A DNA stretch of 64,000 bases, taken from the NCBI GenBank assembly GCA_937770485.1, contig CALJHX010000010.1:33901-97900 (forward strand), in the 5' to 3' direction. The translations under genes were made by a program, and so were the position numbers. The stretch's first letter is position 1. The number at the start of each line of letters is the position of its first letter. The notes under the pieces were generated by a model. The model saw only the letters and a list, made by a program, of their open reading frames with translations, did no database searches and was not told the DNA's origin. Source of the stretch: an uncultured Verrucomicrobiae bacterium. Lineage in GTDB: Bacteria; Verrucomicrobiota; Verrucomicrobiia; Limisphaerales; UBA1096. Shown here in pieces: positions 32,081 through 62,377 of the stretch.

Positions 32081-32343
32081 TTAAAAAAGGTAGAAGAAAA
32101 GAATACCTACATGACCAAGCGTGACAAGCCCTTTCCCCTCCCCTTGGCCAAGTACATGTGCGTTCCATCCCCGCCGCACGCGATTGGCAAAGCGTTCTCA
32201 ACATTTATGGGGTATCGGTTTTCGAGGCACCCTCTTGGATCACGGTTCTATGCACCCCTTTATATAGGGTTCTTGAATCCGTTTCCCCTTTTTAAAGCAG
32301 CAGGAATCGCATCACTCCACGGCGCTTGGGCGCGCTTGGCCAA

Positions 32344-32414
32344 CCGCTAATCAAAGCCACTTTGAACTAAGGAGTCTGTCTACTGTCTTTGACTGCGGGC
32401 TGCAAATCGCGCTC
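32344..32414 (+). repeat. Decayed copy of the 5' end of the ASPIC/UnbV gene at 62375-62444
   Basis: ccgctaatcaaagccactttgaactaaggagtctgtctactg...gggctgcaaatcgcgctc aligns collinearly with ccgATGagcaaagccactttgagttggggcgtctgtctactg...gggctgcaatcgcgctc. Confidence 0.85.
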
Positions 32415-32419
32415 GACAC

Positions 32420-32451
32420 AAAAAAGAGGCCGGGCACTTGGCCCGGCCTCT
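32420..32451 (-). terminator. Intrinsic terminator of giant surface-protein gene copy 1
   Basis: Stem agaggccgggc/gcccggcctct with U-tract on the minus strand. Confidence 0.85.
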
Positions 32452-32483
32452 GGTGTGTGTTCTCTTTTGGTTATTCAACCAAA

Positions 32484-35400
32484 TTACTCTGTCACGGCTC
32501 GTCCGTACTGCTGCGCCTGGTCTGACGGGATCGTCAGCGGGCTTGGTGCATCCACATTCTCCCAAGGACCATTCACCGTCGGCGCCGACTGTAGTGTGCC
32601 TTCAAATGTGATCGTCACCGTGCCGTCTCCGTTGTTCACAACGCTTAGCGCCGGTCCATCTCCACCGCCACCACCGCCGGCAGTCCCGAGCAGTTCGATC
32701 TCAGCAATCTGCATACAGCAGGTGCTCGCTCCCGCTGTTGTCGGGAAGCTCAACTCATAGGTCGTGTAGGCCACATCATTTGCGAAGGATACCTCTTGGC
32801 GCTCGAAACGAGCTCCAAAGGCTGGAACATCTCCCGAGGCTATCTCGGTAAAGGTTGCCCCGCCGTCATTGGATCCCGACAACACAAAGGTCGCTGGGTC
32901 CCTATCCGGCGCATCATTGGCCGATGTCAGCCCCAAACCGCTCACCACTCCACCTCCGGTGGTTATGGTCAAGCCAGATGGGCTGTCATTTGCTCCATCA
33001 AAGTTCAGGTACTTCGTTGACGAGTCGTTATCGATCGCAAATCCGGCATGCTCACCAGCCGGGTGATTATCCGAACTCGGCACAACCGCGTCACCGGCAG
33101 CGCTGATGTCAACTGGCCCTTCAACTACCGGTACCCATGGTGAGAGATAATCTCCACTGATCGGCAGCGCATCTGGAACAATCGCGTCGCCCGTGGTCCA
33201 CGCCACTGCAACGTTGTCTCCTCCGCCACCTTCCTTGTTCAGAATCTCGATGTAGTAGGCCTTGCCTGCTTCCAACGAAATGAACTCAGAGGTTGCTTCG
33301 TCTCCTACCGCCTGATACGCGCGGATCGGCTGCCAACCTGTCTCCTTCGCAATCAACACTCGATTGGAGGGACTCTCATCCGTGCTCAACCACAACTGCG
33401 AGTTGTCATCCGACGCTATGGCAAACTGATAGTCACCAGTAGCTGGCGGATGTAGGAAACCGATCATCTGAACACCGTAGTTGTCCTCCACGTTACCTTC
33501 CGGCTTCGTGTTGATATCTCCAGTCTGCGGCCACTCAATGTAACTCACACTCTCCTCAAAATCAGGAGAATCTGGAAACTTGGAACTAGTAACGAGGTCG
33601 TTGAATCCTCCACTGATACCTTGGTACTGACGCACCGAGATGCTTCCTGCCGCCGTGGCGGGTGCCTTCGTGCCCAGTGTGTAGAGCTCCCATACCGGGA
33701 TCGTGAAGGTCGTCTCAAGCGTCGTCGTCTCGCCTGCGCTATCCTTAAAGGTCGCGCTGACTGTGTGCTCGGTACCCGCTTCAATCGCTCCAGTGCCTGC
33801 AGAGATCGAGTAAGTCTTACCCGACTGCGTCACACCAGAGAACTGTTTGCTCCATGTACCCTCAGATGCCGTTGATTCCAACGCGGCACCACCCAGCGAG
33901 ATCACCACCGAGGCGGCGTCCAGTGTTGTGGCTCCATCTGTCACGTTCAACGTCACTGTCGCCTTAGGATCCATCGAGTTGCCTTCGGCAACACTCACCG
34001 ACGAACTCAGTGCCGACAGAGCCGGTACCGTCACTTTGCCGGCGAAGTACATGCCAGGGATCCCTTCCTGATTTCCGGCCGGGACACTGTCTATATCCTC
34101 ACTCGGCATGCGCCAGCCAACTGTCATCCAGTCGCCTCCACCGCCCTCCTTCAGGATTGCCTCCATGTAGTACTGCTGTCCTTTCACCAGATCCACCGTG
34201 CCCGAAAGGCCTCCGTCGTCCAGCGTGAAGTTTTTGCAGCAACCGTCCTCATGGGCCACCTGAACCGCGTTGGCCGGATCCGTATCGGTGCTGAGCCTCA
34301 ATACGCTAGCGTCATCACTGGCAAGGTAGAACCGGTAGGTACCGCTCTCAGGCGCCGTCAGGATGCCGCTCATCCGACCACCGTAGTTGTCACGGCCATT
34401 ACCATCAAACCCGCCGGCCAACGCTGTGCGCGTGTTCCAACTCGATGCAAACGTCGCCCCATCCGGTGAATCGGGGTAGCGCGCATCGTTGATCAGGTTG
34501 TCAAGGTGTTCCGGGAGATGGCCACCAATGCCGTCCCACCACTCCCATGCGACATGATTATCAAATGTGATTGTTCCATCTCCATTGTTAACCGGACGAT
34601 CCGGCACGCTGATGCTCCAAGCCTTTGAAACCCCATTGTATGAAACATTGGCCGTCGCCGTTCCACTGGCCAATCCGGTCGCCGTACCTGTGATCGTGAT
34701 CGTGGTCCCGTCGGTTGACACCTCGGTGGCAACGTCCTGACCGTTCACGCTCAACTGTGCACCTGTCGCGTCGTCTGCCCTCTTGTAGAGAGTGACAGAG
34801 AGCTGCGCTGAACCGTCTGCAGTAGCCGTGTCAGGCGACGCAGAAACAAAGATCGGATGAGTCGGCGCCGCAGGAAGGATGCTCCTGTCACCCTCGGCCA
34901 GGGCAATGATCTGATCCTCGTCCAGCGCGGAGGCAAACACCGCGAAGTCGTCAATGACACCCCGCAGACTGTTGTTGCCATTCTGGTCACCACCAATGTT
35001 CAGGAAGTTGATGTCGGTCGGCAATGGATTGGTGTTATCTCCATCATGGAAGAGCTCACCATCAATCCAGATCTCCTTCGCGTCCTCGTTCTTGATGAAG
35101 ACGTAGTGATGCCACGTATCGAGCATCTCATCCGTCTCGACGTCACCGTCAACCCATCCACCGATGTCGGCGGCGTTCGCGTTGATCCGCTGTGTGCCGC
35201 CATCGCAACAACCGGCTGTGTCCCAGTAAATCTCGCCGTTGCTCCACGGTACGTGGGCCTGCATCGCACGACCCGGTTCCGCCCAGAAACTAGACGTGCT
35301 CGGGATCGAGTAGTTCTTCTGCCAGAACGCCACCGTCACCGTGTTCACAGATGAAGCAATGTTCAAAAACTCACCAGCGGCAACATGCACATGCTGGTTG

Positions 35401-38400
35401 CCTCCAGCGGTGAAGTCCATCGCCATTCCATCATGCGCGTCATCGGTAAATGCTGCGTCGTTGCGCAGTTCACCCACCAACCCGTACACACTGTCGATCG
35501 TTGTTCCACTTCCCATGTCCAGGTTGAAATCCCAGAACCCTATCGGGTTGGGGCCATCACCAAGTTCATCATGACCAAAGTAGCTCCACGATTTACTCTC
35601 TCCATTCCAGGACAGCGTCACGTTAACCATTCCCTTCGCTCCTCCCGGATTGGCTGTGATCGTCGTGGTGCCCCCATCAGTCGCCAGCGTGTGATCTACC
35701 ACAGCACCATTGACCGAGACTGACACTTCCGTAAAGGCCACTCCACGGTTATTGAACGTCGCCGAAATGCTCGCTGTATCTGCAATCGCCGCCCCAGAGG
35801 GTCCGTTCGAGTTCAGGATCGGTGTACGCGGACCGTCCAGTACTGAGGAGTACGGCGAGAGGTAATCACTTGAAATCGGCAGCGCACCAGGCTCAGGGGC
35901 TGACGGACCATCTTCGGGCAGGCTCCACGCCACCGCCAGGTTGTCTCCGCCGCCGCCTTCATTCACAAAGGCCTCAATGAAGTACACCTGACCCGCTTCC
36001 AGGAAGATCTCCGACGAGGTCGTCTCCGCCCGGTAGTCCCGTACTGGCTGCCAACCACCCTGGCTGGCTATCAACTTCGCGTTGGCCGGACTCTCGTCGG
36101 TCGACAACCACAACTGCCCGTTGTCGTCGCACGCCAGTGCAAAGATATACTCACCGGTCTCCGGCGGGTAAATGTAGCCCATCATGTGCGTACCGTAGTT
36201 GTCACGAACGTTCCCTGCCGGTGGCACCTCAATGTCTCCACTGGCTGGCCACTCAAAGTAAGTCCCCAACGTGCTCACATCCGGTGAATCCGGGAAATTG
36301 GCAGCACCCATGAGTTGGGCAATGCTAGTCCCACCTACACCGTGATACTCGCGAATACTGATCAAACCCTCCGGCTCGGCCGGCACATCACCCGAACGGG
36401 CGTACAATCCCGGCACTTCGAAACTCCACTCGGTCGCACGGGTAATCCCGTTGGATTCCTCAAACGACAAAGAAGCCGTGTGCGCTCCCACCGGAAGCGA
36501 ATCCGGCGAGTAGCTGATCGTCACGATGTCTCCACTCTTGGAGACACTCGCGTCAACCGCTTCGCCGTTCAGGCTCAACACCACCGTGTCCTGCTTGACC
36601 GTCGTGTCCTCATTCTGAACCGTAACTACTACCTCAGAACTCTTGACCATCGTGTCTCCGGGGGTCGGCGATACCGACAACACCTTCGCACGACCAGTCG
36701 TTGCTCGTACCGTCGTGCTCTCATCCACAACCGCACCCTTGATCGTGTAGGCCTTGATCGAGCCCTCCACATCCGGGTCGTTGATCAGCGTCTTCTCGCC
36801 GTTCACATATGAGAATATCTCAATGTTGGCTCCACCGCCGCCTTCCCACCACGCCACGCGATAGGGATACAGTCCCGGCTTGTCCACAAAGATCTCAAAG
36901 TTCGTGTCCGAAGCTCCCCGGCCTCCATTAAACATGCCGACCGTCTGCGCCAGTAGATCACCAAAGTTGGCTCCAAACGATGCGTTGAACCCGTCATCCG
37001 AGTTCACTCCAAACTTGTACGCACCACGTTCCAACTCCAGCAGCGCGATGTACTCAGAGGCGATACCGTCGGTCGAGTCACCCCAGCCAGGGATGCCTGT
37101 AATTGGCTCGTCCTCGTATCCGTTGTCCGCGTTGAAGTTGCCCACCGCACCCGGTGCATCCTGGTTCTGGTTCACCACCTGAACAATCTCAGGATAGTAG
37201 CTCCAGCCCTCAAACGAATCCATGTCCGCCTCGTTCAGGTACTGCTCCTCCGTGTCCACATCGATGTAACCACCGTTAATCTGTTTCTCAGCGTTTACCC
37301 ACTGATTGCCGTGCAGTTCGCCCACGTCCATCTGCCCCACCGAGATCTGCGTCGCGTAAACCAGGAATCCTGACTCACCCTTCATCGAGTCCGGCAGCGC
37401 TACAGTGGTATCAATCGATGTGTAAGGCTTGACCGTGAATTCCTTCTCCAGCTTCGTGCTGTTTCCGTTTGTATCCGTCACAGACACTTTTACGATATGT
37501 ACTGAGTCCGCGGCCAGCAGTTCTGCCGACTCATACGAGACTGCCGTCACCCCTTCGGCCTTCGACTTTGTCACATCGACATCCGCCCCGTCAAAGTTCA
37601 CCGCGATGCTCTCTGGATCCACAGTGGCTCCATCAACATCCTTTACCTGAAAACTAAACCCAACTGCATTGGACACCATTCCGGCCAACCTGGGTTTCGG
37701 AATCGCTCCTCCTGCAGAAATAGTAACGAGAGCCTTGCCGTCCCCACCATTCCAGATCGAGGCAATCTCATCCTCCGTGATCGGGCGATCCCATACTCCG
37801 ACATCGTCTATCATGCCGTGCCAGGTCCTGCCCCGTGCATCGGGGTTATCCCCTATCATCATCGGGAAATCATTGCTTTCAATGCTGGGTGCGCCTGCGG
37901 TTCCTTCAATCTCTCCATCAACATAAAAACGCACCTCGCCGCCGTCCGGATCGCTCACCAATACAATGTGGTGAATCGCCCCATCACTGACATCGGTAGT
38001 GCCCTGTGAGACATCTCCGCTGCCTCCGTTGGCTGTAAAGACACTCTCTCCACCACGACGGTGCACGCGCCACCTGTTGCCTTCGCCCTTGGCAATCAAC
38101 GCCTGCCAGCTCTTGCCGAAGGAATCAACAGTGAACCAAGCCGAGATTGAAAAGCCGGTGCCATCCTGAAAATCAAACATCTCCTCGTTCTCAACCGGTG
38201 TCTCTACAAACTGGTCGACACCGTCAAGGGCGATGCCTTGTCCAAACTGCCCATCAGCGTAGGAAATCTCTTCACCACCCTGACCGGTACCGTGACTGTC
38301 ACCAACGGCGTCATCCAGATCGCCGTCGAATGGCCAGTAGGCTATCAAACCAGGTACTGTCTCGACTGGTCCACCGCTTCCTTCCTCAAGAACGATCTTA

Positions 38401-40414
38401 AAGTTGTCGATGAATTGATTGGCATTGGCTCCGCCTGTCCGTCCCCCGATGGCGATCCGTGCATTTTCAATGGACTCGAAGTCCGGAATGTTGACTGCGT
38501 CATGAATTAATTCGCCATTGTAGGAAATCGTAAGGTCTCCGTCAGGAGTCAGCTCCATTTCCACCGGCCACCAACCTTCGGTATCCAATGTGGATTCGTC
38601 CTGAGTCCCCATCGGCACGGTAGCCACTATCTCTTTCCCCCATTTTATGTCGATCGCGGGTCCTTCCGCAGCGCCATTATCCCAGTTGTCGAAACAGATT
38701 ATCAGCTTTGAACCTCCTGCCCCAGGACCCTCCTCGCCGAATGCCTCAACCGCATCAAAATCATCGGAAATCGACATGCTCAGACCATCGGCCTGGGTGT
38801 CCGTTCCACCGTCAATCAAAATGTCGAAAGTTATTTTGAATTTATCGACTGTTCCGATGTCCTCACTGAGCCATCCACCTAATTGACTATTTTCAGCTCG
38901 CGTTATAACCAAAGCCCCGCTGTCATCAACTCCTTCGTCCTCACTGTGCTCTGCACTCCCGGCTACCTCTGATCCGTCCGGCAAGCCACCGTTGAAATCC
39001 CATGTCACACTTCTTTCCACTGCGACTACAGGTGCCAACTGGACACCATTGATCGGTGCACGAATGCCCTCAATATCCTCTGTCGAGGCAACAAGAACAA
39101 TATTCCTCGCACTCAGACCAGAGAATACCATGTGGGTGCCTTCATCAGCGTGATCCACCCCAGGATCCTCAACATATTCAGTCGGGTTCCTTGGCGAATC
39201 ACCTACCTTTTTCTTGGCCAAAACGTTGCCTTCCGAGTCCTCGATCCAGTAATGACCACCCCGAATAGCTGGTGGCATCTGGTGAGAAGCCACTCCGCCC
39301 AAGGCATACACAATCACGTCGTAGCTCGGCAGTCTGCCGGTATACCGCTAATCGCAACAGTTATCTTAGAGGAATTATTCGTGTCCAGGTAGCCGGTCAT
39401 CATCGTCTTGTCTCCACCGTCTTCGAATTCGATGTTTTCCTCGCCCCACCCGGTCGATGACCATAAGTTTACACTGGACCACTCTACCGTGATCCCCGTT
39501 GAAGATCCGTCGTTTGCTACAACCTCATCAGAGCTTCCAGTCGCACCTGCCAAACTGTTCCAGTTCTGCTGAGCGAAGCCCGGCAGACCGGCCTTGGCCT
39601 CTGCTTCCATTGTGCCTCCGTTGCTGCCATCCGGCGCGTCTGCTCCAAAGTTCAGACCCACGGTTCGGAGCGTAGCATTTTGGGCGGGGATTCCACCACT
39701 GTTCAACGAACCTACCTCATCCGCACTAAGGGCGCGGTCCCATATGGCGATATCGTCAAGCATGCCGTTCCAGTTCTCATTGGCTTGGTCCCCGCCGAAG
39801 TAGAATGGCTGCGGATTTTGGAGTTCACTTGTAAAAGTGCTAGATTCATCCTCTGTGCCATTAGTATAGTGGGTAAATGTGTCCCCTGTCTTGACCACCA
39901 CATGGTGAATCCACTCTCCCTCACTATTGGCCAGATCATCGAATTCGCAGTTCTGTCCACCGCCATCTAGATGAAACTCAAACTTGGTCGGTGTGAACTT
40001 GATGAACTCGCGAGGCGCGAAGTCGACGCCTTCGGGGCCGTAGCGATTACCCAAAACAACATCGTTTGGGCCATTACCACCTGCTTGGTTAATCCAAACT
40101 GACCAGGTAAAGTCGTTATCTTGGGTCATCTGGGGAATCGTTTCCGCTCCTGCATCTGCGTATGCGTCAACCCCATCAAAGGAGAGAACTACTCCCCTGT
40201 CGGGATCATCGACCCACTCCACCCCGTTGTAGAGCTCCGCATCCTCTCCTCCAGCCGAATTGGCGGCGGTGGTCCCGTCGCCTTCATCAAGCGGCCAGTA
40301 ACCTATTAAGCCGTCACTGAGTTGTGCATTCACGCTGGCGATGCCAACGAACATAAATGCCGTCAACATTCCCGCTGCGATAAAGCGACGGGCCGTCATT
40401 AGTTTCTTAATCAT
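32484..40414 (-). pseudogene. Giant secreted LamG/PA14 multidomain surface protein, copy 1, split by a 1-nt frameshift (real lesion or sequence error)
   Basis: ORFs 39314-40414 (signal peptide + LamG) and 32484-39317 join if one base is added at 39331/39332 (GAC-TG CCG AGC TAC GAC GTG = D L P S Y D V); length parity with intact copy 2 also requires +1. Confidence 0.8.
39674..39748. repeat. 75-bp conserved linker between the two variable modules (partner 61295-61369)
   Basis: 74/75 identical; encodes (A)IWDRALSADEVGSLNSGGIPAQNA; flanks differ on both sides. Confidence 0.95.
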
Positions 40415-40698
40415 GGTTTGGTTATAGTTTGGGGTTGGTTTAGGTTTAATAAGTTAACTTCTAAAAAATAAAAATCACAGGTTGTCTGTATATTAACTTT
40501 TTCAAAAAAATATAATTTTTCCTCTAAGTTTAGAATAACTAGTACGTTGTAAGAAAGTTAAATATCTAAAAGCAGGATTTGTCGCAAGCATTTTTTTTGA
40601 ATAAAATTTATTTACATGTTTTTTAGTGGTTTTTCTTAAAAACCATCAAATGTTTAGCCGCCTCACAGTAGGTATTTAGAATTTGCCCTATGCCGACG
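40415..40698 (-). promoter_or_regulatory. AT-rich upstream/promoter region of copy 1, homologous to 62078-62365
   Basis: First ~105 bp almost identical between copies, including palindrome AAGTTAACTT (40451-40460 / 62114-62123); identity decays distally. Confidence 0.65.
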
Positions 40699-41003
40699 CC
40701 CAATCTGGCCAAGCTCAATTTGCACGAGGTGAGGATTCCCAAGGGTTTTGAGCTTGCGAGACTCCCTTTTGGCCAAAGCGGGACATAGAACTAAAGTGAC
40801 ACCCATGGCCAAGTCGGCGACTGCGCTGAGTAAAACGCCACCGTCGGTAACTTCAACGGTCGTATCCATTGCGGCTCCCTTTACTGCAGTAAAAGCCGTC
40901 TTGAGGCCTAAATCAGGCCCAATGGATTTAAAAATTTTGGAAAAAAGGAGAGCCTTCTGATCTGCCCATCTCAACTCCACAGCGAAAACCAAGAACCTAC
41001 AGG

Positions 41004-41828: not shown

Positions 41829-42090
41829 CTTTGTTTGTGAGCAAAGAAATAAACTGCCACCCCCCATCCGGCCACTCTATTTTGAGGAAAACGGGGCTCT
41901 GCGCGAACAAAAACCTGCGCCCGGCAAGCGCTTGGCCAAGCAGACGTTATCGGTAATGATGGATCGTATGCCGTGTTCCCTCGCTATGCCGATCCACACC
42001 AACGATTGGTGTCACCACGATGTCGAAGCGCTTGTCCCAATTGAAATCCGCCGCCGAAGGGTGCCGGATTCTCGTCCTTGATTGGGCGAC

Positions 42091-42116
42091 AAAAAAAGTC
42101 CGGCTTGAACCGGACT
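42091..42116 (-). terminator. Intrinsic terminator
   Basis: Stem agtccgg/ccggact with A7 on the left (U-tract on minus) downstream of the prepilin-type gene. Confidence 0.75.
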
Positions 42117-42153
42117 CTCATGGGCTAGCTTGGTCAGCTTAAAATAATTTATG

Positions 42154-42957: not shown

Positions 42958-43012
42958 ACGTGTGTTTGTAAATTTCTCAATTCAAAAAATCAAGCAAAAA
43001 TCATGTTAAATT

Positions 43013-50979: not shown

Positions 50980-53741
50980 TCACCTCGCCTCAAACACTTT
51001 CAGCTCCGCATCGTTTACGGTCACGACAATATCGAGCTTAGAGTCCCCGTTAAGGTCGATCAGTGCAATCCTCCGGGCATCCCCGGGCACGACAAGGCCG
51101 GACTCACGGGGCCAGACGGGATAAAAGCCCCCCAAGCCGTCGACCTTGAGAAGCAGACTGACGCCCCCATCCATGTTGCCGGTTTCTCGCTGCGGGCTAC
51201 CTGAGTTGCCGACGATGTAGATGTCCGGTTTGTCGTCGTTGGTCAAATCATGAACGACGATGCCGCTTACGGGAAAGGCTTGGGCAATGCGGGGTAGCTG
51301 CACAAAAGAGAAACGGCCATCGCCATCGTTCATAAAGATGCCGGACACCAGCGTGTTCGCCTCGTAACGGCACGCCTTGTCCAGACGGGATTGCGAGTAA
51401 ATGGATTCGAGTGATTTGATCGCAAAAGAGTGGAAGGTCGGCAACTTGGCCCTCAAGCCTGGCATGGCATGGTTCGAGCAACTGTAACCACGATGGGGGA
51501 AACAGACTTCACCTTCGAACTTGGCCTCGAGGATTCGCTGCGTGCCCGTCCCGTCAAAATCACCGTAGAAAAGCAGCTCGGGCTTGGAAACAGTGGCCTT
51601 GTATTTCGTATTGAGACCGGTGTTTCCAGCGACCAGATCAATATCACCGTCGCCATCCAAGTCACCGGCAGCTAGGCTGCTCCACCAACCGGTAACTTTT
51701 TCCATACCCGACCCGGCCGAAACCCTGCGCAGGCTACCTTGAACATTTTGGATGACCTCGACCGGACCCCATTCAGTGGTCACGACCAGTTCCGGCCAAG
51801 CATCACCATTGGTATCTGCCCAGACGGCGGCTGTAACCATCCCCAACTCCCCAAGCCCAGCACCCGGCGCAATATCACTGAATCGCACAATGCCGTTACT
51901 GGAGTCGTTGCGGAGCAGGCAACTGCGCGGTGTCTCGGGATATTTGCCGGGAACAACTCGGCCGCCGACGAAAACGTCAAGATCCCCATCCTTGTCATAA
52001 TCAGCCACCGCAGCAGGGCCACCACTCGCCGAAACACCGGGCAGTGCATTATTTGGGGCCGCTGAAAAGTTGCCATTCCCGTCGTTCAAGTAGAGACGAT
52101 CCTTGAATACAGGTGAGCCCGCGCTGCCCTCGACGCCCCCGCTGACGACGTACAGGTCCGAGTCACCGTCATTGTCAGCATCAAAAAAAAGGGGCGTGAC
52201 ATCCTCGCATTCAGCGTGCTGCCTGAACGGACCCAAACCTCGCAACTCGAAAAGGTTTCCGGTTTTTCCCGGTTTAGACCTGCGAAAATAGATTCGCCCC
52301 GCGGTGCCTGCCGCCTGAGCGAGATAGAAATCCTCCAGACCGTCACCATCAACATCTGCAAAGGCAATGCCGGGGCCAAGCTGAGAATGTTTACCGGGGA
52401 GTAGCGGCTGCCGGGAAAAGTCGTCGAAAGGACGCTCACGATGGCGAACCCCTTTCAAACGATCAACTGCCACGAACAGGGATCTCCTTTCCTGGGATAG
52501 TTTCTCCTCCACTGAAACGGTAGCCGGCTCGGTGATTGTGTACCGCCTATTCGCCTTCAGGCTCTCAAAGGACTGATTGCGGCCGCTGGGCCATGTTACT
52601 GTCAGCGATTGGATTTCCTTTTGGTTGCCCAGGCCAAAGTGCAGGGCCGGCTCCGGGCAGGACATGAAGCCGCGAGCCGAGGTGAGATAGCGGGTCAATT
52701 TTTGATCCGTATTTACCAACCTAACTGCCACGGTGGAACCAATGCCAAACCGGTTGCTTGCCGTCCCAACAAGTTGCACAACAATCCGATGACCTGATGC
52801 ACCGGTGTTCTCGAAGATCGATGGAGGGCCGTCGAAGTTGTTCACCACCACATCTAGGTTTCCGTCCCCGTTCAGATCCGACAAAACGGAACCGAAACTA
52901 ACACTTTTACTGCCCAACTTCCACTCGGTAACACTCTCCCGCATTTTCAGCCCGGCCTGGTTTCAAAATACCCGGTTGGTTTGGAGAAGAGGTTTCTGCG
53001 CATACCAGAAGTCGTAATAACGATCCCAACCGTCCTTCGAGGGTGCCCTTGCACGGAGATCGCTGTTCAACCAGTCGCGGCTCAGGGAAAACGGTTCGTT
53101 GAGCAGCGAATCGGGGGCAGGAAGCCGGTTTGTAACAAGGAACAGATCCAGGTCACCATCCGGATCATAGTCCGCGAACGTGCCCACAATGATCGCTCCG
53201 CTAAAATCCACGCCAAGGTCATTGGCGCTTTCGACGAGTACACGCCCACCACCCTCAGGGCGGTTCAAATAGAGCCGGTTTGGACAGTCAAAACCGCACA
53301 CATAGAGGTCAAGCCAGCCGTCATTATCGACATCCGCCCATGAAGCACGGGTCGCCCAATTACCCGCGGGCGCTGGCGGTTTCAGAAGAGTCGATCTATT
53401 GGCAAACTGGAATTGCCCAGATTCCTGAATAACTGCCCGCCGTTGGTTTAACCTCAAATGAACAGATCAGGATAGCCGTCCTGGTCATAGTCTCCGGCAG
53501 CCACACCCGCCCCGGAAAAGGCATTCGTAAGCTGATCCCTGTGTTTCGCAGGCGGATTCCATCGGTGAACAAAGTCTATACCTGCTCCAGAGACATCAAT
53601 CGGCCGGAAAAGCTTCGAATGCTTTTGGCCAGTACCACCCATTTCGAGAGCTCTCTCCTGAAGTTGAGCGAACGGGTTTTGTTCGCCCGCGACAAGAAGG
53701 CTCAAAACGACGAGCTCAATGGAGCGCAAACGAGCTAACAA
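50980..53741 (-). pseudogene. Decayed CRTAC1/ASPIC-UnbV gene
   Basis: Three pieces; in-frame TGA at 52963-52965 (F*NQAGLK); two stops after GYPDLFI (53454 region) then TNGGQLFRNLGN and a frameshift; apparent internal deletion near 53080. Confidence 0.85.
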
Positions 53742-53867
53742 CTCGTGAGTGTAATCAAGTCACTTTCAAAAACAACCGATCAGTACCCCGTGGCGCAAAA
53801 ACTACATACCGACCCTGCGCCTAGCAAATGGTGAAGGATTCAGGCCTTCACCTTGGCTTCATGGGGG

Positions 53868-54060
53868 TTACTTCCTGACTCGACCAAACCAGGCCCCATC
53901 GTCAGCCGTTATTTGCATCGGGCTTTCGCCGTTTACATCGTTCCACTGGCCGTTAACAGTCGGGGCAGACTGCAATGTGCCGTCAAATGTAATCGTCAGC
54001 GGACCGTCAGCGTTATTGACAACGACAACGGCGGTAGGAACTTCCGCCAGCGGAGACAAG
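53868..54060 (-). pseudogene. Orphan C-terminal domain of a lost secreted protein
   Basis: VVNNADGPLTITFDGTLQSAPTVNGQWNDVNGESP...WFGRVRK aligns with the giant protein's C-terminus; hairpin ggtgaagg/ccttcacc at 53830-53852 follows the stop. Confidence 0.75.
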
Positions 54061-54084
54061 CCTTCTGCGATTTTTTGATCACAA

Positions 54085-54163
54085 CCGCTAATCAAAGCCA
54101 CTTTGAACTAAGGAGTCTGTCTACTGGAGCGCTCTGCTTGACTCCGGGCTGCAAATCGCGCTC
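54085..54163 (+). repeat. Decayed copy of the 5' end of the ASPIC/UnbV gene at 62375-62444
   Basis: Same as 32344-32414 with a net 8-bp insertion after ctactg. Confidence 0.85.
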
Positions 54164-54168
54164 GACAC

Positions 54169-54200
54169 AAAAAAGAGGCCGGGCACTTGGCCCGGCCTCT
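54169..54200 (-). terminator. Intrinsic terminator of giant surface-protein gene copy 2
   Basis: Identical to 32420-32451. Confidence 0.85.
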
Positions 54201-54232
54201 GGTGTGTGTTCTCTTTTGGTTATTCAACCAAA

Positions 54233-57200
54233 TTACTCTGTCACGGCTCGTCCGTACTGCTGCGCCTGGTCTGACGGGATCGTCAGCGGGCTTGGTGCAT
54301 CCACATTCTCCCAAGGACCATTCACCGTCGGCGCCGACTGTAGTGTGCCTTCAAATGTGATCGTCACCGTGCCGTCTCCGTTGTTCACAACGCTTAGCGC
54401 CGGTCCATCTCCACCGCCACCACCGCCGGCAGTCCCGAGCAGTTCGATCTCAGCAATCTGCATACAGCAGGTGCTCGCTCCCGCTGTTGTCGGGAAGCTC
54501 AACTCATAGGTCGTGTAGGCCACATCATTTGCGAAGGATACCTCTTGGCGCTCGAAACGAGCTCCAAAGGCTGGAACATCTCCCGAGGCTATCTCGGTAA
54601 AGGTTGCCCCGCCGTCATTGGATCCCGACAACACAAAGGTCGCTGGGTCCCTATCCGGCGCATCATTGGCCGATGTCAGCCCCAAACCGCTCACCACTCC
54701 ACCTCCGGTGGTTATGGTCAAGCCAGATGGGCTGTCATTTGCTCCATCAAAGTTCAGGTACTTCGTTGACGAGTCGTTATCGATCGCAAATCCGGCATGC
54801 TCACCAGCCGGGTGATTATCCGAACTCGGCACAACCGCGTCACCGGCAGCGCTGATGTCAACTGGCCCTTCAACTACCGGTACCCATGGTGAGAGATAAT
54901 CTCCACTGATCGGCAGCGCATCTGGAACAATCGCGTCGCCCGTGGTCCACGCCACTGCAACGTTGTCTCCTCCGCCACCTTCCTTGTTCAGAATCTCGAT
55001 GTAGTAGGCCTTGCCTGCTTCCAACGAAATGAACTCAGAGGTTGCTTCGTCTCCTACCGCCTGATACGCGCGGATCGGCTGCCAACCTGTCTCCTTCGCA
55101 ATCAACACTCGATTGGAGGGACTCTCATCCGTGCTCAACCACAACTGCGAGTTGTCATCCGACGCTATGGCAAACTGATAGTCACCAGTAGCTGGCGGAT
55201 GTAGGAAACCGATCATCTGAACACCGTAGTTGTCCTCCACGTTACCTTCCGGCTTCGTGTTGATATCTCCAGTCTGCGGCCACTCAATGTAACTCACACT
55301 CTCCTCAAAATCAGGAGAATCTGGAAACTTGGAACTAGTAACGAGGTCGTTGAATCCTCCACTGATACCTTGGTACTGACGCACCGAGATGCTTCCTGCC
55401 GCCGTGGCGGGTGCCTTCGTGCCCAGTGTGTAGAGCTCCCATACCGGGATCGTGAAGGTCGTCTCAAGCGTCGTCGTCTCGCCTGCGCTATCCTTAAAGG
55501 TCGCGCTGACTGTGTGCTCGGTACCCGCTTCAATCGCTCCAGTGCCTGCAGAGATCGAGTAAGTCTTACCCGACTGCGTCACACCAGAGAACTGTTTGCT
55601 CCATGTACCCTCAGATGCCGTTGATTCCAACGCGGCACCACCCAGCGAGATCACCACCGAGGCGGCGTCCAGTGTTGTGGCTCCATCTGTCACGTTCAAC
55701 GTCACTGTCGCCTTAGGATCCATCGAGTTGCCTTCGGCAACACTCACCGACGAACTCAGTGCCGACAGAGCCGGTACCGTCACTTTGCCGGCGAAGTACA
55801 TGCCAGGGATCCCTTCCTGATTTCCGGCCGGGACACTGTCTATATCCTCACTCGGCATGCGCCAGCCAACTGTCATCCAGTCGCCTCCACCGCCCTCCTT
55901 CAGGATTGCCTCCATGTAGTACTGCTGTCCTTTCACCAGATCCACCGTGCCCGAAAGGCCTCCGTCGTCCAGCGTGAAGTTTTTGCAGCAACCGTCCTCA
56001 TGGGCCACCTGAACCGCGTTGGCCGGATCCGTATCGGTGCTGAGCCTCAATACGCTAGCGTCATCACTGGCAAGGTAGAACCGGTAGGTACCGCTCTCAG
56101 GCGCCGTCAGGATGCCGCTCATCCGACCACCGTAGTTGTCACGGCCATTACCATCAAACCCGCCGGCCAACGCTGTGCGCGTGTTCCAACTCGATGCAAA
56201 CGTCGCCCCATCCGGTGAATCGGGGTAGCGCGCATCGTTGATCAGGTTGTCAAGGTGTTCCGGGAGATGGCCACCAATGCCGTCCCACCACTCCCATGCG
56301 ACATGATTATCAAATGTGATTGTTCCATCTCCATTGTTAACCGGACGATCCGGCACGCTGATGCTCCAAGCCTTTGAAACCCCATTGTATGAAACATTGG
56401 CCGTCGCCGTTCCACTGGCCAATCCGGTCGCCGTACCTGTGATCGTGATCGTGGTCCCGTCGGTTGACACCTCGGTGGCAACGTCCTGACCGTTCACGCT
56501 CAACTGTGCACCTGTCGCGTCGTCTGCCCTCTTGTAGAGAGTGACAGAGAGCTGCGCTGAACCGTCTGCAGTAGCCGTGTCAGGCGACGCAGAAACAAAG
56601 ATCGGATGAGTCGGCGCCGCAGGAAGGATGCTCCTGTCACCCTCGGCCAGGGCAATGATCTGATCCTCGTCCAGCGCGGAGGCAAACACCGCGAAGTCGT
56701 CAATGACACCCCGCAGACTGTTGTTGCCATTCTGGTCACCACCAATGTTCAGGAAGTTGATGTCGGTCGGCAATGGATTGGTGTTATCTCCATCATGGAA
56801 GAGCTCACCATCAATCCAGATCTCCTTCGCGTCCTCGTTCTTGATGAAGACGTAGTGATGCCACGTATCGAGCATCTCATCCGTCTCGACGTCACCGTCA
56901 ACCCATCCACCGATGTCGGCGGCGTTCGCGTTGATCCGCTGTGTGCCGCCATCGCAACAACCGGCTGTGTCCCAGTAAATCTCGCCGTTGCTCCACGGTA
57001 CGTGGGCCTGCATCGCACGACCCGGTTCCGCCCAGAAACTAGACGTGCTCGGGATCGAGTAGTTCTTCTGCCAGAACGCCACCGTCACCGTGTTCACAGA
57101 TGAAGCAATGTTCAAAAACTCACCAGCGGCAACATGCACATGCTGGTTGCCTCCAGCGGTGAAGTCCATCGCCATTCCATCATGCGCGTCATCGGTAAAT

Positions 57201-60200
57201 GCTGCGTCGTTGCGCAGTTCACCCACCAACCCGTACACACTGTCGATCGTTGTTCCACTTCCCATGTCCAGGTTGAAATCCCAGAACCCTATCGGGTTGG
57301 GGCCATCACCAAGTTCATCATGACCAAAGTAGCTCCACGATTTACTCTCTCCATTCCAGGACAGCGTCACGTTAACCATTCCCTTCGCTCCTCCCGGATT
57401 GGCTGTGATCGTCGTGGTGCCCCCATCAGTCGCCAGCGTGTGATCTACCACAGCACCATTGACCGAGACTGACACTTCCGTAAAGGCCACTCCACGGTTA
57501 TTGAACGTCGCCGAAATGCTCGCTGTATCTGCAATCGCCGCCCCAGAGGGTCCGTTCGAGTTCAGGATCGGTGTACGCGGACCGTCCAGTACTGAGGAGT
57601 ACGGCGAGAGGTAATCACTTGAAATCGGCAGCGCACCAGGCTCAGGGGCTGACGGACCATCTTCGGGCAGGCTCCACGCCACCGCCAGGTTGTCTCCGCC
57701 GCCGCCTTCATTCACAAAGGCCTCAATGAAGTACACCTGACCCGCTTCCAGGAAGATCTCCGACGAGGTCGTCTCCGCCCGGTAGTCCCGTACTGGCTGC
57801 CAACCACCCTGGCTGGCTATCAACTTCGCGTTGGCCGGACTCTCGTCGGTCGACAACCACAACTGCCCGTTGTCGTCGCACGCCAGTGCAAAGATATACT
57901 CACCGGTCTCCGGCGGGTAAATGTAGCCCATCATGTGCGTACCGTAGTTGTCACGAACGTTCCCTGCCGGTGGCACCTCAATGTCTCCACTGGCTGGCCA
58001 CTCAAAGTAAGTCCCCAACGTGCTCACATCCGGTGAATCCGGGAAATTGGCAGCACCCATGAGTTGGGCAATGCTAGTCCCACCTACACCGTGATACTCG
58101 CGAATACTGATCAAACCCTCCGGCTCGGCCGGCACATCACCCGAACGGGCGTACAATCCCGGCACTTCGAAACTCCACTCGGTCGCACGGGTAATCCCGT
58201 TGGATTCCTCAAACGACAAAGAAGCCGTGTGCGCTCCCACCGGAAGCGAATCCGGCGAGTAGCTGATCGTCACGATGTCTCCACTCTTGGACACACTCGC
58301 GTCAACCGCTTCGCCGTTCAGGCTCAACACCACCGTGTCCTGCTTGACCGTCGTGTCCTCATTCTGAACCGTAACTACTACCTCAGAACTCTTGACCATC
58401 GTGTCTCCGGGGGTCGGCGATACCGACAACACCTTCGCACGACCAGTCGTTGCTCGTACCGTCGTGCTCTCATCCACAACCGCACCCTTGATCGTGTAGG
58501 CCTTGATCGAGCCCTCCACATCCGGGTCGTTGATCAGCGTCTTCTCGCCGTTCACATATGAGAATATCTCAATGTTGGCTCCACCGCCGCCTTCCCACCA
58601 CGCCACGCGATAGGGATACAGTCCCGGCTTGTCCACAAAGATCTCAAAGTTCGTGTCCGAAGCTCCCCGGCCTCCATTAAACATGCCGACCGTCTGCGCC
58701 AGTAGATCACCAAAGTTGGCTCCAAACGATGCGTTGAACCCGTCATCCGAGTTCACTCCAAACTTGTACGCACCACGTTCCAACTCCAGCAGCGCGATGT
58801 ACTCAGAGGCGATACCGTCGGTCGAGTCACCCCAGCCAGGGATGCCTGTAATTGGCTCGTCCTCGTATCCGTTGTCCGCGTTGAAGTTGCCCACCGCACC
58901 CGGTGCATCCTGGTTCTGGTTCACCACCTGAACAATCTCAGGATAGTAGCTCCAGCCCTCAAACGAATCCATGTCCGCCTCGTTCAGGTACTGCTCCTCC
59001 GTGTCCACATCGATGTAACCACCGTTAATCTGTTTCTCAGCGTTTACCCACTGATTGCCGTGCAGTTCGCCCACGTCCATCTGCCCCACCGAGATCTGCG
59101 TCGCGTAAACCAGGAATCCTGACTCACCCTTCATCGAGTCCGGCAGCGCTACAGTGGTATCAATCGATGTGTAAGGCTTGACCGTGAATTCCTTCTCCAG
59201 CTTCGTGCTGTTTCCGTTTGTATCCGTCACAGACACTTTTACGATATGTACTGAGTCCGCGGCCAGCAGTTCTGCCGACTCATACGAGACTGCCGTCACC
59301 CCTTCGGCCTTCGACTTTGTCACATCGACATCCGCCCCGTCAAAGTTCACCGCGATGCTCTCTGGATCCACAGTGGCTCCATCAACATCCTTTACCTGAA
59401 AACTAAACCCAACTGCATTGGACACCATTCCGGCCAACCTGGGTTTCGGAATCGCTCCTCCTGCAGAAATAGTAACGAGAGCCTTGCCGTCCCCACCATT
59501 CCAGATCGAGGCAATCTCATCCTCCGTGATCGGGCGATCCCATACTCCGACATCGTCTATCATGCCGTGCCAGGTCCTGCCCCGTGCATCGGGGTTATCC
59601 CCTATCATCATCGGGAAATCATTGCTTTCAATGCTGGGTGCGCCTGCGGTTCCTTCAATCTCTCCGTCAACATAAAAACGCACCTCGCCGCCGTCCGGAT
59701 CGCTCACCAATACAATGTGGTGAATCGCCCCATCACTGACATCGGTAGTGCCCTGTGAGACATCTCCGCTGCCTCCGTTGGCTGTAAAGACACTCTCTCC
59801 ACCACGACGGTGCACGCGCCACCTGTTGCCTTCGCCCTTGGCAATCAACGCCTGCCAGCTCTTGCCGAAGGAATCAACAGTGAACCAAGCCGAGATTGAA
59901 AAGCCGGTGCCATCCTGAAAATCAAACATCTCCTCGTTCTCAACCGGTGTCTCTACAAACTGGTCGACACCGTCAAGGGCGATGCCTTGTCCAAACTGCC
60001 CATCAGCGTAGGAAATCTCTTCACCACCCTGACCGGTACCGTGACTGTCACCAACGGCGTCATCCAGATCGCCGTCGAATGGCCAGTAGGCTATCAAACC
60101 AGGTACTGTCTCGACTGGTCCACCGCTTCCTTCCTCAAGAACGATCTTAAAGTTGTCGATGAATTGATTGGCATTGGCTCCGCCTGTCCGTCCCCCGATG

Positions 60201-62077
60201 GCGATCCGTGCATTTTCAATGGACTCGAAGTCCGGAATGTTGACTGCGTCATGAATTAATTCGCCATTGTAGGAAATCGTAAGGTCTCCGTCAGGAGTCA
60301 GCTCCATTTCCACCGGCCACCAACCTTCGGTATCCAATGTGGATTCGTCCTGAGTCCCCATCGGCACGGTAGCCACTATCTCTTTCCCCCATTTTATGTC
60401 GATCGCGGGTCCTTCCGCAGCGCCATTATCCCAGTTGTCGAAACAGATTATCAGCTTTGAACCTCCTGCCCCAGGACCCTCCTCGCCGAATGCCTCAACC
60501 GCATCAAAATCATCGGAAATCGACATGCTCAGACCATCGGCCTGGGTGTCCGTTCCACCGTCAATCAAAATGTCGAAAGTTATTTTGAATTTATCGACTG
60601 TTCCGATGTCCTCACTGAGCCATCCACCTAATTGACTATTTTCAGCTCGCGTTATAACCAAAGCCCCGCTGTCATCAACTCCTTCGTCCTCACTGTGCTC
60701 TGCACTCCCGGCTACCTCTGATCCGTCCGGCAAGCCACCGTTGAAATCCCATGTCACACTTCTTTCCGGCGTACCGGAAGAAGTTTGACGAATGATCAAG
60801 CCACTAACACCACCGGTGTTGTCTTCCAGGTGCATATACCAGAGAGGTTCACCCGCTCCCACATTCACCTCGACTGTGGCACTGCCCTGAGCGAAGTTGC
60901 CCGTGTTCTCTTCTTCAGGCTCTTCACCGGTCCAGATCTTGGCAACCTGATTGTCATCCGTCGTCCGGCCTTCGAAAACCGTAACCTTGTAGCTGCCTGC
61001 TGGCAGACCATCAAATCGCATGCGTGCTGTGGTTCCGGCTGTATCGGCAATCTTGAAGAAGTAATCATTGCGAGCCTCCTGCGGCACGACTACCCCATCG
61101 TATTCAGCTCCCTCGCCTGGCTGGGCAGGGTTGTTTGGGTTAAATCCATCGTCGAGCGCGGTCAGCGTAGCGCCGCCTCCCAAATCTACAGTTTCATCCA
61201 TCACGAGGTTGTCGAACGTGATCCACGGGTCTGGTGACGCGCCGGCTGAATTAGCGGCTGCGCCGCCGAAGTCGATGAGAAAACTTGCTAGCGGAGCATT
61301 TTGGGCGGGGATTCCACCACTGTTCAACGAACCTACCTCATCCGCACTAAGGGCACGGTCCCATATGGCTACGTCATCGATCACACCGGTCACCCAGTGC
61401 GACGCATTGTCACGTAAAATTCCGCCTATTGTTGTCGCGTTTATGTCGTCCCAACCAGATTCTGGCTTCGCTGCAATCTCCAAATCATCGAGTACTCCGT
61501 CGACATAAATGCTACGCTCGAGATCCTCCTGCACAAACACCACGTGATGCCAATCACCATCAAACGGTTCCGCGGTAGAGAAAATGTGGCCGACCGTCGG
61601 CCCTGCCCCACGGATGTAAATATCGATTGTTCCATCCGAACCGTTATTCTTGGTTCCAATATTAAACAAAGGGGTATTATTACCCTCTGTATTGGACTCG
61701 GAAAATACGCGCAGATCGCTCTGGCCATTCCCGTCCAACTGGGACCAGAACGAAATGGTGAACGAATCATTCTTGTTCGCCGGTAGGGCATCCCCCTCCT
61801 CGTTCTTGCGCCACAGAAGTGTCTGATCGGCATTAGAAAAGGAAATCGCATTTCCGTAAATGCCCTCCACTACATTGTCAGCGGTCATGTTGTCGACGTT
61901 CATGTCGTAGCCGCTCACCACGTCAGGCGTGGTTTCACCGTTTATCTCATCCAGCGGCCAATGGGCCACCAGACCTTCCGTAAGTTGCGCATTCACGCTG
62001 GCGATGCCAACGAACATGAATGCCGTCAACATTCCCGCTGCGATAAAGCGACGGGCCGTCATTAGTTTCTTAATCAT
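54233..62077 (-). CDS. Giant (2614 aa) secreted LamG/L-lectin/PA14/discoidin-like multidomain surface protein, copy 2 (intact)
   Basis: Sec signal MIKKLMTARR...VNA|Q; three LamG-like (WPLDE/WPFDG/FWDFN...IDD.A), four PA14-like (SDD/CDD...EGGGG), Ig-like spacers, F5/8C-like AIDNDSSTKYLNF, Gly linker and C-terminal domain; very acidic. Confidence 0.9.
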   Translation of the reverse strand: MIKKLMTARRFIAAGMLTAFMFVGIASVNAQLTEGLVAHWPLDEINGETTPDVVSGYDMNVDNMTADNVVEGIYGNAISFSNADQTLLWRKNEEGDALPANKNDSFTISFWSQLDGNGQSDLRVFSESNTEGNNTPLFNIGTKNNGSDGTIDIYIRGAGPTVGHIFSTAEPFDGDWHHVVFVQEDLERSIYVDGVLDDLEIAAKPESGWDDINATTIGGILRDNASHWVTGVIDDVAIWDRALSADEVGSLNSGGIPAQNAPLASFLIDFGGAAANSAGASPDPWITFDNLVMDETVDLGGGATLTALDDGFNPNNPAQPGEGAEYDGVVVPQEARNDYFFKIADTAGTTARMRFDGLPAGSYKVTVFEGRTTDDNQVAKIWTGEEPEEENTGNFAQGSATVEVNVGAGEPLWYMHLEDNTGGVSGLIIRQTSSGTPERSVTWDFNGGLPDGSEVAGSAEHSEDEGVDDSGALVITRAENSQLGGWLSEDIGTVDKFKITFDILIDGGTDTQADGLSMSISDDFDAVEAFGEEGPGAGGSKLIICFDNWDNGAAEGPAIDIKWGKEIVATVPMGTQDESTLDTEGWWPVEMELTPDGDLTISYNGELIHDAVNIPDFESIENARIAIGGRTGGANANQFIDNFKIVLEEGSGGPVETVPGLIAYWPFDGDLDDAVGDSHGTGQGGEEISYADGQFGQGIALDGVDQFVETPVENEEMFDFQDGTGFSISAWFTVDSFGKSWQALIAKGEGNRWRVHRRGGESVFTANGGSGDVSQGTTDVSDGAIHHIVLVSDPDGGEVRFYVDGEIEGTAGAPSIESNDFPMMIGDNPDARGRTWHGMIDDVGVWDRPITEDEIASIWNGGDGKALVTISAGGAIPKPRLAGMVSNAVGFSFQVKDVDGATVDPESIAVNFDGADVDVTKSKAEGVTAVSYESAELLAADSVHIVKVSVTDTNGNSTKLEKEFTVKPYTSIDTTVALPDSMKGESGFLVYATQISVGQMDVGELHGNQWVNAEKQINGGYIDVDTEEQYLNEADMDSFEGWSYYPEIVQVVNQNQDAPGAVGNFNADNGYEDEPITGIPGWGDSTDGIASEYIALLELERGAYKFGVNSDDGFNASFGANFGDLLAQTVGMFNGGRGASDTNFEIFVDKPGLYPYRVAWWEGGGGANIEIFSYVNGEKTLINDPDVEGSIKAYTIKGAVVDESTTVRATTGRAKVLSVSPTPGDTMVKSSEVVVTVQNEDTTVKQDTVVLSLNGEAVDASVSKSGDIVTISYSPDSLPVGAHTASLSFEESNGITRATEWSFEVPGLYARSGDVPAEPEGLISIREYHGVGGTSIAQLMGAANFPDSPDVSTLGTYFEWPASGDIEVPPAGNVRDNYGTHMMGYIYPPETGEYIFALACDDNGQLWLSTDESPANAKLIASQGGWQPVRDYRAETTSSEIFLEAGQVYFIEAFVNEGGGGDNLAVAWSLPEDGPSAPEPGALPISSDYLSPYSSVLDGPRTPILNSNGPSGAAIADTASISATFNNRGVAFTEVSVSVNGAVVDHTLATDGGTTTITANPGGAKGMVNVTLSWNGESKSWSYFGHDELGDGPNPIGFWDFNLDMGSGTTIDSVYGLVGELRNDAAFTDDAHDGMAMDFTAGGNQHVHVAAGEFLNIASSVNTVTVAFWQKNYSIPSTSSFWAEPGRAMQAHVPWSNGEIYWDTAGCCDGGTQRINANAADIGGWVDGDVETDEMLDTWHHYVFIKNEDAKEIWIDGELFHDGDNTNPLPTDINFLNIGGDQNGNNSLRGVIDDFAVFASALDEDQIIALAEGDRSILPAAPTHPIFVSASPDTATADGSAQLSVTLYKRADDATGAQLSVNGQDVATEVSTDGTTITITGTATGLASGTATANVSYNGVSKAWSISVPDRPVNNGDGTITFDNHVAWEWWDGIGGHLPEHLDNLINDARYPDSPDGATFASSWNTRTALAGGFDGNGRDNYGGRMSGILTAPESGTYRFYLASDDASVLRLSTDTDPANAVQVAHEDGCCKNFTLDDGGLSGTVDLVKGQQYYMEAILKEGGGGDWMTVGWRMPSEDIDSVPAGNQEGIPGMYFAGKVTVPALSALSSSVSVAEGNSMDPKATVTLNVTDGATTLDAASVVISLGGAALESTASEGTWSKQFSGVTQSGKTYSISAGTGAIEAGTEHTVSATFKDSAGETTTLETTFTIPVWELYTLGTKAPATAAGSISVRQYQGISGGFNDLVTSSKFPDSPDFEESVSYIEWPQTGDINTKPEGNVEDNYGVQMIGFLHPPATGDYQFAIASDDNSQLWLSTDESPSNRVLIAKETGWQPIRAYQAVGDEATSEFISLEAGKAYYIEILNKEGGGGDNVAVAWTTGDAIVPDALPISGDYLSPWVPVVEGPVDISAAGDAVVPSSDNHPAGEHAGFAIDNDSSTKYLNFDGANDSPSGLTITTGGGVVSGLGLTSANDAPDRDPATFVLSGSNDGGATFTEIASGDVPAFGARFERQEVSFANDVAYTTYELSFPTTAGASTCCMQIAEIELLGTAGGGGGGDGPALSVVNNGDGTVTITFEGTLQSAPTVNGPWENVDAPSPLTIPSDQAQQYGRAVTE

Positions 62078-62377
62078 GGTTTGGTTATAGTTTGGGGTTG
62101 TTTTAGGTTTAATAAGTTAACTTCTGAAAAATAAAAATCACAGGTTGTTTGTATATTAACTTGTTCAAAAAAATATAATTTTTCTTTTAAAGTTCGATCT
62201 ACAATACTTTGAGAGACGGGTTGATATCGAAAAGAGGGTGTTACCTCAAGCTTTTTTTGAAAAAAAATTATTCACATGTTGTTCTCATTTTTCGGTTTTT
62301 ATGAACCATCAGACTATCTCGCTGCCTCACTGCAGGCATTGACAATTCCTCTCCAATGCCCGACGAATTCCCAGCCG
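62078..62377. promoter_or_regulatory. AT-rich divergent promoter region
   Basis: Between divergent ATGs at 62077 (-) and 62378 (+); homologous to 40415-40698. Confidence 0.65.

Follow-up and report, generated by a model that had tools for sequence, protein, structure and literature searches.

How do two giant genes of one bacterium come to share almost the whole of their sequence and to carry different modules near their N-termini: through a device that exchanges the tips of a surface protein, or through ordinary recombination among related genes? The question is raised by a 64,000-nt stretch (hereafter the window; positions 33901-97900 of contig C10) of the metagenome-assembled genome (MAG) GCA_937770485.1 of an uncultured Verrucomicrobiae bacterium, which comprises 3.3 Mb on 46 contigs at 83% completeness and 4.3% contamination and the organism of which is contained in marine metagenomes from 15 studies. 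The window holds twin long genes, copy 1 and copy 2, which both lie on the minus strand, 21.7 kb apart (Table 1). A first-pass annotation, which was made from the sequence alone, had read them as a domain-cassette exchange system. Based on a block-by-block comparison, public sequencing runs and the module content of related proteins, we found that no dedicated system is evident, and we read the twin genes as the outcome of common recombination between paralogs that encode surface proteins rather than as a dedicated switching device. Both genes are real, and it is probable that they are stable paralogs whose modules were reshuffled by ectopic recombination and whose long common part, the body or stalk, was homogenised, most likely by gene conversion.

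Conserved and different blocks alternate in the two genes, as had been described in the first-pass annotation and as was reproduced using BLASTN of both regions and a base-by-base alignment. The longest shared block, the body with its 3' flank (32341-39018 and 54082-60767), is 99.835% identical over 6686 columns. In its coding part (32484-39018), the sole differences from copy 2 are 36543 G/C and 37917 A/G, both of them synonymous, given that the two proteins agree completely (100%) from residue 438 to residue 2614 of copy 2. The earlier count of two synonymous differences in a 6.5-kb body thus holds for the coding part, while the 3' untranslated regions (UTRs) differ by an 8-nt indel and three mismatches (32385-32395) that had not been listed. 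Towards the 5' end, the signal-peptide coding part shows two mismatches in 95 nt, the same number that had been noted before, and the ~107 nt that lie 5' of the ATG are ~96% identical, with the similarity decaying farther upstream. The anchor, a short block between modules A and B (39669-39748 and 61290-61369), is identical at 78 of 80 positions and includes a perfect 60-nt core; the 74 identities in 75 bp that had been reported for it were reproduced over 39674-39748. The A modules proved to be two divergent LamG-like domains, as had been suspected: each has a Laminin_G_3 match, and A1 and A2 share 30% amino acid identity over ~100 residues. The lack of clear similarity between the B modules was also confirmed, as BLASTP found none and a comparison of their profiles gave a probability of 0.1%. 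All four internal block boundaries are abrupt. Three of the four fall at domain or linker edges, which the first-pass annotation had claimed for the breakpoints in general; the A-to-anchor breakpoint lies inside LamG_3, with the anchor beginning at residue 223 of copy 1 and the Laminin_G_3 match ending at residue 234. The anchor encodes the conserved last strand and helix of LamG_3 plus a linker. The shared unit starts ~107 nt 5' of the ATG and continues for 143 nt beyond the stop codon; it holds the promoter-proximal region and a terminator-like hairpin and therefore amounts to a whole transcription unit. A scan for sigma-70-type promoters upstream of copy 1 yielded no site on the minus strand.

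Both loci were recovered in data that are independent of the assembly. Logan contigs of four public runs from four studies (2017-2023), three of DNA (X1, X2 and X4) and one of RNA (X15), were compared with the window over 38001-58000. At 39018, 39669 and 40320, the loose ends of these contigs match copy 2 exactly, at 60768, 61260 and 61953, respectively, and the one ahead of 54082 corresponds to the downstream flank of copy 1 at 32311. The depth of the body contigs was about twice that of the A1/B1 and flank contigs (19.6 versus 8.4-10 in X1, 12.4 versus 3-6 in X2 and 56 versus 24-25 in X4). Single body contigs of 1.4-2.3 kb showed neither branching nor a bubble, so that the near-identity of the two bodies is not an artefact of polishing. 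Moreover, the anchor was found in two metagenome contigs of the Joint Genome Institute (JGI), of which L024 is 99% identical and ends 53 nt into the body, while L025, a 20-kb contig, covers the whole copy 2 locus with both of its flanks. The 8-nt insertion in the copy 2 3' UTR (54127-54134) was not seen in X1, X2 and X4. Loose ends at 54456, 54817 and 54820 were considered as locus variants and rejected, as they are the sequence of a paralog on C19; five further loose-end strings had no match among the sequences compared.

An assembly artefact would mean that, in a MAG of composite origin, strains were merged into a chimera or repeats were polished alike, so that either the presence of twins or the close match of their bodies is spurious; it has to be judged against these data. 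The contamination of the MAG, its many inter-contig near-duplicates with 90-99.9% identity and at least one private 1-nt deletion in the window (at 39330) speak for it, but the unique flanks differ between the loci, every junction type is present in independent runs, the body contigs are unbranched and about twice as deep in three DNA runs, and L025 crosses copy 2 independently. The single, mis-assembled locus that the first-pass annotation had named as a refuting outcome can be rejected because of these junctions and depths, and the artefact as a whole is largely refuted and extremely improbable. As an observation in its own right, the contig pairs C2/C26, C8/C44, C3/C25, C24/C35 and C14/C32 are among many that share 7-14 kb at 90-99.9% identity, some of them over the whole contig, and the MAG seems to hold contigs from more than one closely related strain; this does not explain the two loci because their flanks differ. 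In runs X1 and X4, contigs also join 40521, the outer edge of the copy 1 5' stretch, to 50307 in an inverted orientation, with a shorter side of 31 nt, which may be due to a short repeat or a strain rearrangement.

The runs also corrected the reading frame of copy 1. In the window, this gene is split into two open reading frames (ORFs) that overlap by 4 nt because of a frameshift within B1, the context of which is not a homopolymer. In four of the four runs, and on every contig that covers the site, one extra A follows position 39330, which makes copy 1 a single open frame of 2643 aa. The description of the locus as twin giant genes was thus correct in that both are real, while copy 1 is broken in the window by a 1-nt deletion. 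This break is private to the assembly and goes back either to a fault in assembling or to a variant that is rare. For genome scanning, the lesson is that an assembly-private frameshift would make copy 1 look like a pseudogene. Nearby, 39353 is C>T relative to the window in all four runs.

In the only RNA run that was compared, the contigs of both genes were far deeper than those of their neighbours. In the metatranscriptome X15, the depth was 370 for the A1 contig, 168 for the B1 contig and 350-590 for the body contigs, and it was 0-104 for the neighbouring genes, for which several bins were zero; these empty bins argue against a carry-over of DNA. X15 also contains the copy 2 tip junctions, into A2 and B2, and both tips are hence present in RNA contigs. 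The ends of the transcripts cannot be read from contigs.

Modules that resemble those of the twin genes are spread over the genome and its relatives in other arrangements. In the same genome, a B2-like module forms the C-terminus of a 1901-aa paralog on C16 (82.5% nucleotide and 80% amino acid identity), the F5/8-like module recurs three times on C19, and two A2-like LamG modules with 64% amino acid identity to A2 stand in tandem in a 1086-aa paralog on C2 (C2:62921-64252). The tandem units of the latter are 642 nt long and 100% identical, which is another very recent module duplication or conversion. Partial matches were found in every one of 40 relatives, with differing module orders, and A1-like and B1-like modules occur in other contexts in 13 of the 25 same-genus genomes; B1-like modules are present in G021 and G011, for instance. 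A module library was then placed on 165 proteins, i.e., copy 2 (P0001) and 164 proteins from database searches. Close relatives of A1 (77-97%) were found in other architectures, and the signal peptide recurs with at least 80% identity in six non-self proteins, whose first modules are of four different kinds. P0123 (2661 aa) combines the same signal peptide with another LamG type, B2 (92%) and the body start. In P0006, an A1-like LamG (89%) and, in P0132, an A2-like LamG are joined straight to the body start without a B module, while in P0147 B2 stands straight behind the signal peptide and P0021 has two B1-like modules in tandem. P0162 shares the signal peptide (100%) and A1 (97%), departs mid-anchor into other modules and has body parts that are 97-100% identical. 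Many of these architectures recur across several clusters, each with several members. The further cassettes and other pairings that the first-pass annotation had named as support for its model do occur in relatives, as P0123, P0006 and P0162 demonstrate, and its statement that recombination had moved the N-terminal modules is borne out.

Whether this reshuffling amounts to a dedicated exchange of domain cassettes, in which frequent RecA-type recombination at the anchors swaps the tips, between the loci or out of a store of cassettes, for ligand range or for escape from phages or grazers, is a different matter, and we consider such a system very unlikely. Each variable block is indeed flanked by conserved blocks, relatives such as P0123, P0162 and P0043 have other LamG or B modules in these places after the same signal peptide, and both tips are found in RNA contigs. 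However, there are only two copies of the anchor and no promoterless cassettes in the 3.3-Mb, 83% complete genome: A1 and B1 have no other close copy there, and the copies that resemble B2 and A2 are parts of other long ORFs. The search for the anchor that had been proposed as a check returned these two copies in the genome and two metagenome contigs; the anchor as a genus-wide DNA joint was rejected, as its DNA is not conserved in 24 of the 25 other genomes of the genus. Both JGI contigs that span the copy 2 anchor read A2-anchor-B2, as does the window, and no recombinant A-B pairing was found within the species. Among the loose ends listed, apart from which there were 72 more, the same junction sequences were seen in the four runs, and those at 39018, 39669 and 40320 are copy 2 only, with no alternative tip variants. 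Moreover, the ~33 other window ORFs that were scanned contain no recombinase, integrase, transposase or reverse transcriptase family, and each gene has a promoter-proximal region of its own and is represented by its tip among the RNA contigs. Because the two genes are direct repeats, crossing-over would delete 21.7 kb and not swap the tips.

The distribution of differences along the genes bears on their history. The 292 nt that make up the 5' UTR, the signal peptide and the anchor contain 8 mismatches, compared with 2 in the 6535 nt of the body (Fisher p = 4e-10); relative to the body, divergence is ~90-fold higher in the signal-peptide and anchor blocks. As would be expected of paralogs that convert each other, 6686 nt at 99.84% stand with abrupt edges beside unalignable blocks at separate loci. 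In the copy 2 ortholog on L025, identity to the window is 98.5-99.4% in the flanks and 98.4-100% across A2, anchor and B2, while the body is a mosaic (99.6, 98.9 and 97.4%, and 89.8% over 54933-56500) that is without the 453-nt F5/8-like module (window 54429-54881). Divergence is 0.03% between the paralog bodies and 0.4-10% for the L025 body segments with flanks of 0.6-1.5%, a comparison that concerns the copy 2 ortholog alone. Instead of gene conversion, a recent duplication of the whole gene could be invoked, after which the 5' part of one copy, from the 5' UTR to B, was exchanged in one or two recombination events for that of a family member which had diverged. In favour of this, what is identical comprises a complete transcription unit with abrupt edges, an imported 5' part could have brought in the 2.7% by which signal peptide and anchor diverge, and the genome has other very recent module duplications, e.g., the perfect 642-nt tandem on C2. 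We regard this account as somewhat unlikely. L025 copy 2 keeps the tip and the flanks, yet its body is up to 10% different and has one module fewer; therefore, at least one more body-wide event would be needed since the split. In addition, the ~2x body depth in runs of three studies reveals a twin state that is widespread and not a private recent event.

We therefore favour gene conversion over recent duplication; of the earlier statement that gene conversion had homogenised the stalk, the near-identical stalk is confirmed, while conversion as opposed to recent duplication is not proven. According to the reading that includes conversion, the modules of a large lectin-like family are reshuffled by ectopic recombination between paralogs as well as between lineages, with breakpoints that often lie at the conserved signal peptide, the LamG end motif or linkers. 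An older duplication or a tip exchange would have been the first step, and it would have been followed by a recent whole-body gene conversion between the loci in the lineage of the window, the tract of which would have ended at the B/body edge, where homology stops. The A and B blocks would have been drawn from different members of the module pool. The outcome would be two stable, co-expressed proteins with a common stalk and different distal binding modules, and the twin tips probably widen the range of glycan or particle ligands.

Several points weigh against this reading. The L025 lineage yielded no copy 1 ortholog, which leaves the conversion step without proof, and the same strata would result from a recent duplication if a diverged allele then replaced the 5' part in a single step. 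P0162 had been considered as such an ortholog and was rejected, as the bodies are only ~80% alike. Since short-read assemblers are misled by repeated modules, some of the architectures seen in metagenome proteins may be chimeras of the assembly. Which A goes with which B within the species is read from the window and from two JGI contigs of apparent sister samples; Logan contigs cannot phase them, as they break or overlap by 30 nt in the perfect 60-nt core. With a MAG that is 83% complete and has many near-duplicate contigs, cassettes could still be missing from it. Contig depth is a rough and poor measure of expression. Finally, the binding function is deduced from the domain families, with B2 fold matches that are weak and a predicted local distance difference test (pLDDT) score of 49.5 for the B1 model.

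A broader possibility, which we consider rather unlikely, is that the genus runs a lineage-wide combinatorial lectin repertoire, in which the 5' UTR, the signal peptide and the LamG end motif serve as recurrent joints and the modules of the pool are set on a conversion-homogenised stalk. If this were true, related strains would show different glycan-binding tips that track the diversity of algal polysaccharides or phage pressure, and the twin genes would be one snapshot of the process.

Recombination between paralogous adhesin genes is already known, and the principle is unsurprising. The FLO proteins of yeast carry an N-terminal PA14-type lectin on a repetitive stalk. Like the twin genes, they are encoded by paralogous cell-surface adhesin genes that recombine between loci, and this ectopic recombination is reported to yield chimeric alleles with new adhesion properties (PMC3512402). 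The FLO genes, however, are eukaryotic and subtelomeric with a Ser/Thr-rich repeat stalk, whereas the twin genes are bacterial, with a variable part of LamG and modules that resemble carbohydrate-binding modules (CBMs) and a stalk of distinct lectin-type domains. For the bab genes of Helicobacter pylori, gene conversion between loci is the accepted mechanism, and the conversion changes which gene is expressed. The genes babA, babB and babC resemble the twin genes in being adhesin paralogs at separate loci with near-identical segments and a divergent ligand-binding part (PMC4552749, PMC5483490). They differ in that they are outer-membrane protein genes of ~2 kb, whereas the twin genes are both found in RNA contigs and share 6.7 kb, and no exchange between their loci was observed in the population data. 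In Apilactobacillus kunkeei, Giant1-5 are neighbouring, very large extracellular proteins with N-terminal binding domains, for which intragenic and intergenic recombination as well as near sequence identity tied to recombination tracts have been reported (PMC12863079). These are proteins of Firmicutes with a beta-solenoid that are encoded by consecutive genes, in contrast to two copies 21.7 kb apart with a replacement of whole modules. The systems of Neisseria pilE/pilS, Borrelia vlsE and Anaplasma msp2 consist of one expression site and promoterless cassettes and switch at high frequency. The twin genes share with them the conserved blocks that flank variable blocks and the homologous recombination at the former, but neither the single expression site with promoterless cassettes nor the frequent switching was found here. 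Diversity-generating retroelements depend on a reverse transcriptase and a template repeat, whereas the ~33 window ORFs scanned hold no reverse transcriptase family, and the variable blocks of the twin genes differ as whole modules, unlike the point substitutions in the targets of such elements. A full-text literature search found no paper on such genes in marine Verrucomicrobiota.

Regarding the domain content, copy 2 was scanned segment by segment against Pfam. Its putative signal peptide, recognised by eye from a basic start, a core of hydrophobic residues and an end of the Ala-x-Ala type, is followed by LamG_3 (A2), B2, a weak L-type-lectin-like module and LamG_3, and then by a module without an assigned family (residues 871-1310, 440 aa), PA14, LamG_3, PA14, PA14, a weak F5/8-type-C-like module and a 58-aa C-terminal domain. 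Laminin_G_3 (188 bits in three stretches) and PA14 (106 bits in three stretches) exceed the gathering scores in copy 2, and the same applies to the copy 1 ORFs, while scans of the proteins with Pfam and NCBIfam returned no catalytic family. The model of B2 (8-row alignment, pLDDT 75) is a beta-sandwich, which in Foldseek weakly matched CBM35 modules as well as the N-terminal domain of YxiM (template modelling scores of 0.3-0.53). The AlphaFold2 (AF2) model of a B1-like module was built from a 4-row alignment and has the low pLDDT given above; an Atlas search with B1 returned clusters without names and, below the 0.9 line and as leads only, a YxiM/agarase galactose-binding-like family (0.85) and malectin (0.84). 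The LamG_3, PA14 and CBM-like matches support the lectin-type modules of the first-pass annotation. Judging from these families, the modules appear to be lectin or CBM-like, and each protein of ~2600 aa would be secreted and composed of lectin-type modules only; a surface location and a binding function are likewise suggested for both.

The C-terminal domain of copy 2 also ends at least four other large ORFs of the genome. More generally, a conserved domain of ~55 aa (54236-54409; ORFs on C3, C12 and C16; L035, P0021, P0123 and others) ends many large secreted proteins. It has no Pfam family and, by eye, no transmembrane stretch, and it may be a sorting or anchoring signal.

The twin pair is a clean natural case of one stalk with two sets of lectin-type tips, and it is a convenient entry to asking what the giant proteins of marine Verrucomicrobiota bind. 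The locus also records recent recombination or concerted evolution across 6.7 kb in an uncultured bacterium. The coordinates of its features are collected in Table 1.

Table 1. Features of the twin genes, in positions of the window.
Feature	Position	Strand	Remark
Copy 1 gene	32484..40414	-	In the window ORFs 39314-40414 (366 aa) and 32484-39317 (2277 aa); in public runs intact, 2643 aa
Copy 2 gene (P0001)	54233..62077	-	Intact, 2614 aa
Copy 1 shared promoter-proximal / 5' UTR stretch	40415..40521	-	~96% identical to 62078-62184
Copy 2 shared promoter-proximal / 5' UTR stretch	62078..62184	-	
Copy 1 signal peptide	40322..40414	-	31 aa; protein identical in both copies
Copy 2 signal peptide	61985..62077	-	
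Module A1, main part of LamG_3 domain	39749..40321	-	Pfam E 1.7e-21
Module A2, main part of a different LamG_3 domain	61370..61984	-	30% amino acid identity to A1
Copy 1 anchor	39669..39748	-	Last LamG_3 strand, helix and linker
Copy 2 anchor	61290..61369	-	
Module B1	39019..39668	-	~218 aa, without Pfam family; holds the window-private frameshift 39330/39331
Module B2	60768..61289	-	175 aa, without Pfam family; predicted beta-sandwich
Copy 1 body	32484..39018	-	2178 codons; 2 synonymous differences from copy 2
Copy 2 body	54233..60767	-	
Copy 1 shared 3' UTR	32341..32483	-	Terminator-like hairpin 32425-32451
Copy 2 shared 3' UTR	54082..54232	-	Hairpin 54174-54200

The neighbours of the twin genes encode prepilin-type N_methyl/DUF1559 proteins, an FGE-sulfatase-like protein, FG-GAP/ASPIC proteins and a TonB/ExbB cluster. 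Three consecutive minus-strand ORFs at 47507-53457 (1158, 654 and 164 aa) all have FG-GAP/ASPIC-UnbV repeats and may be a tandem family or else one or two genes that indels of the assembly have split. Two runs show one more A after 51093, which was considered as a merger of the neighbouring FG-GAP/ASPIC ORFs and rejected, as they stay separate. Elsewhere in the window, a 750-aa ORF at 19775-22027 combines a low-molecular-weight phosphatase/ArsC-like part with RpiB and serine hydroxymethyltransferase, which may be a fusion or an ORF call across adjacent genes. Directly downstream of copy 1, at 32007-32050, lies a dispersed repeat of ~45 bp that has matches of 84-96% on ~20 other contigs, often several per contig, and that may be a repetitive extragenic palindrome (REP)-like or terminator-like element.

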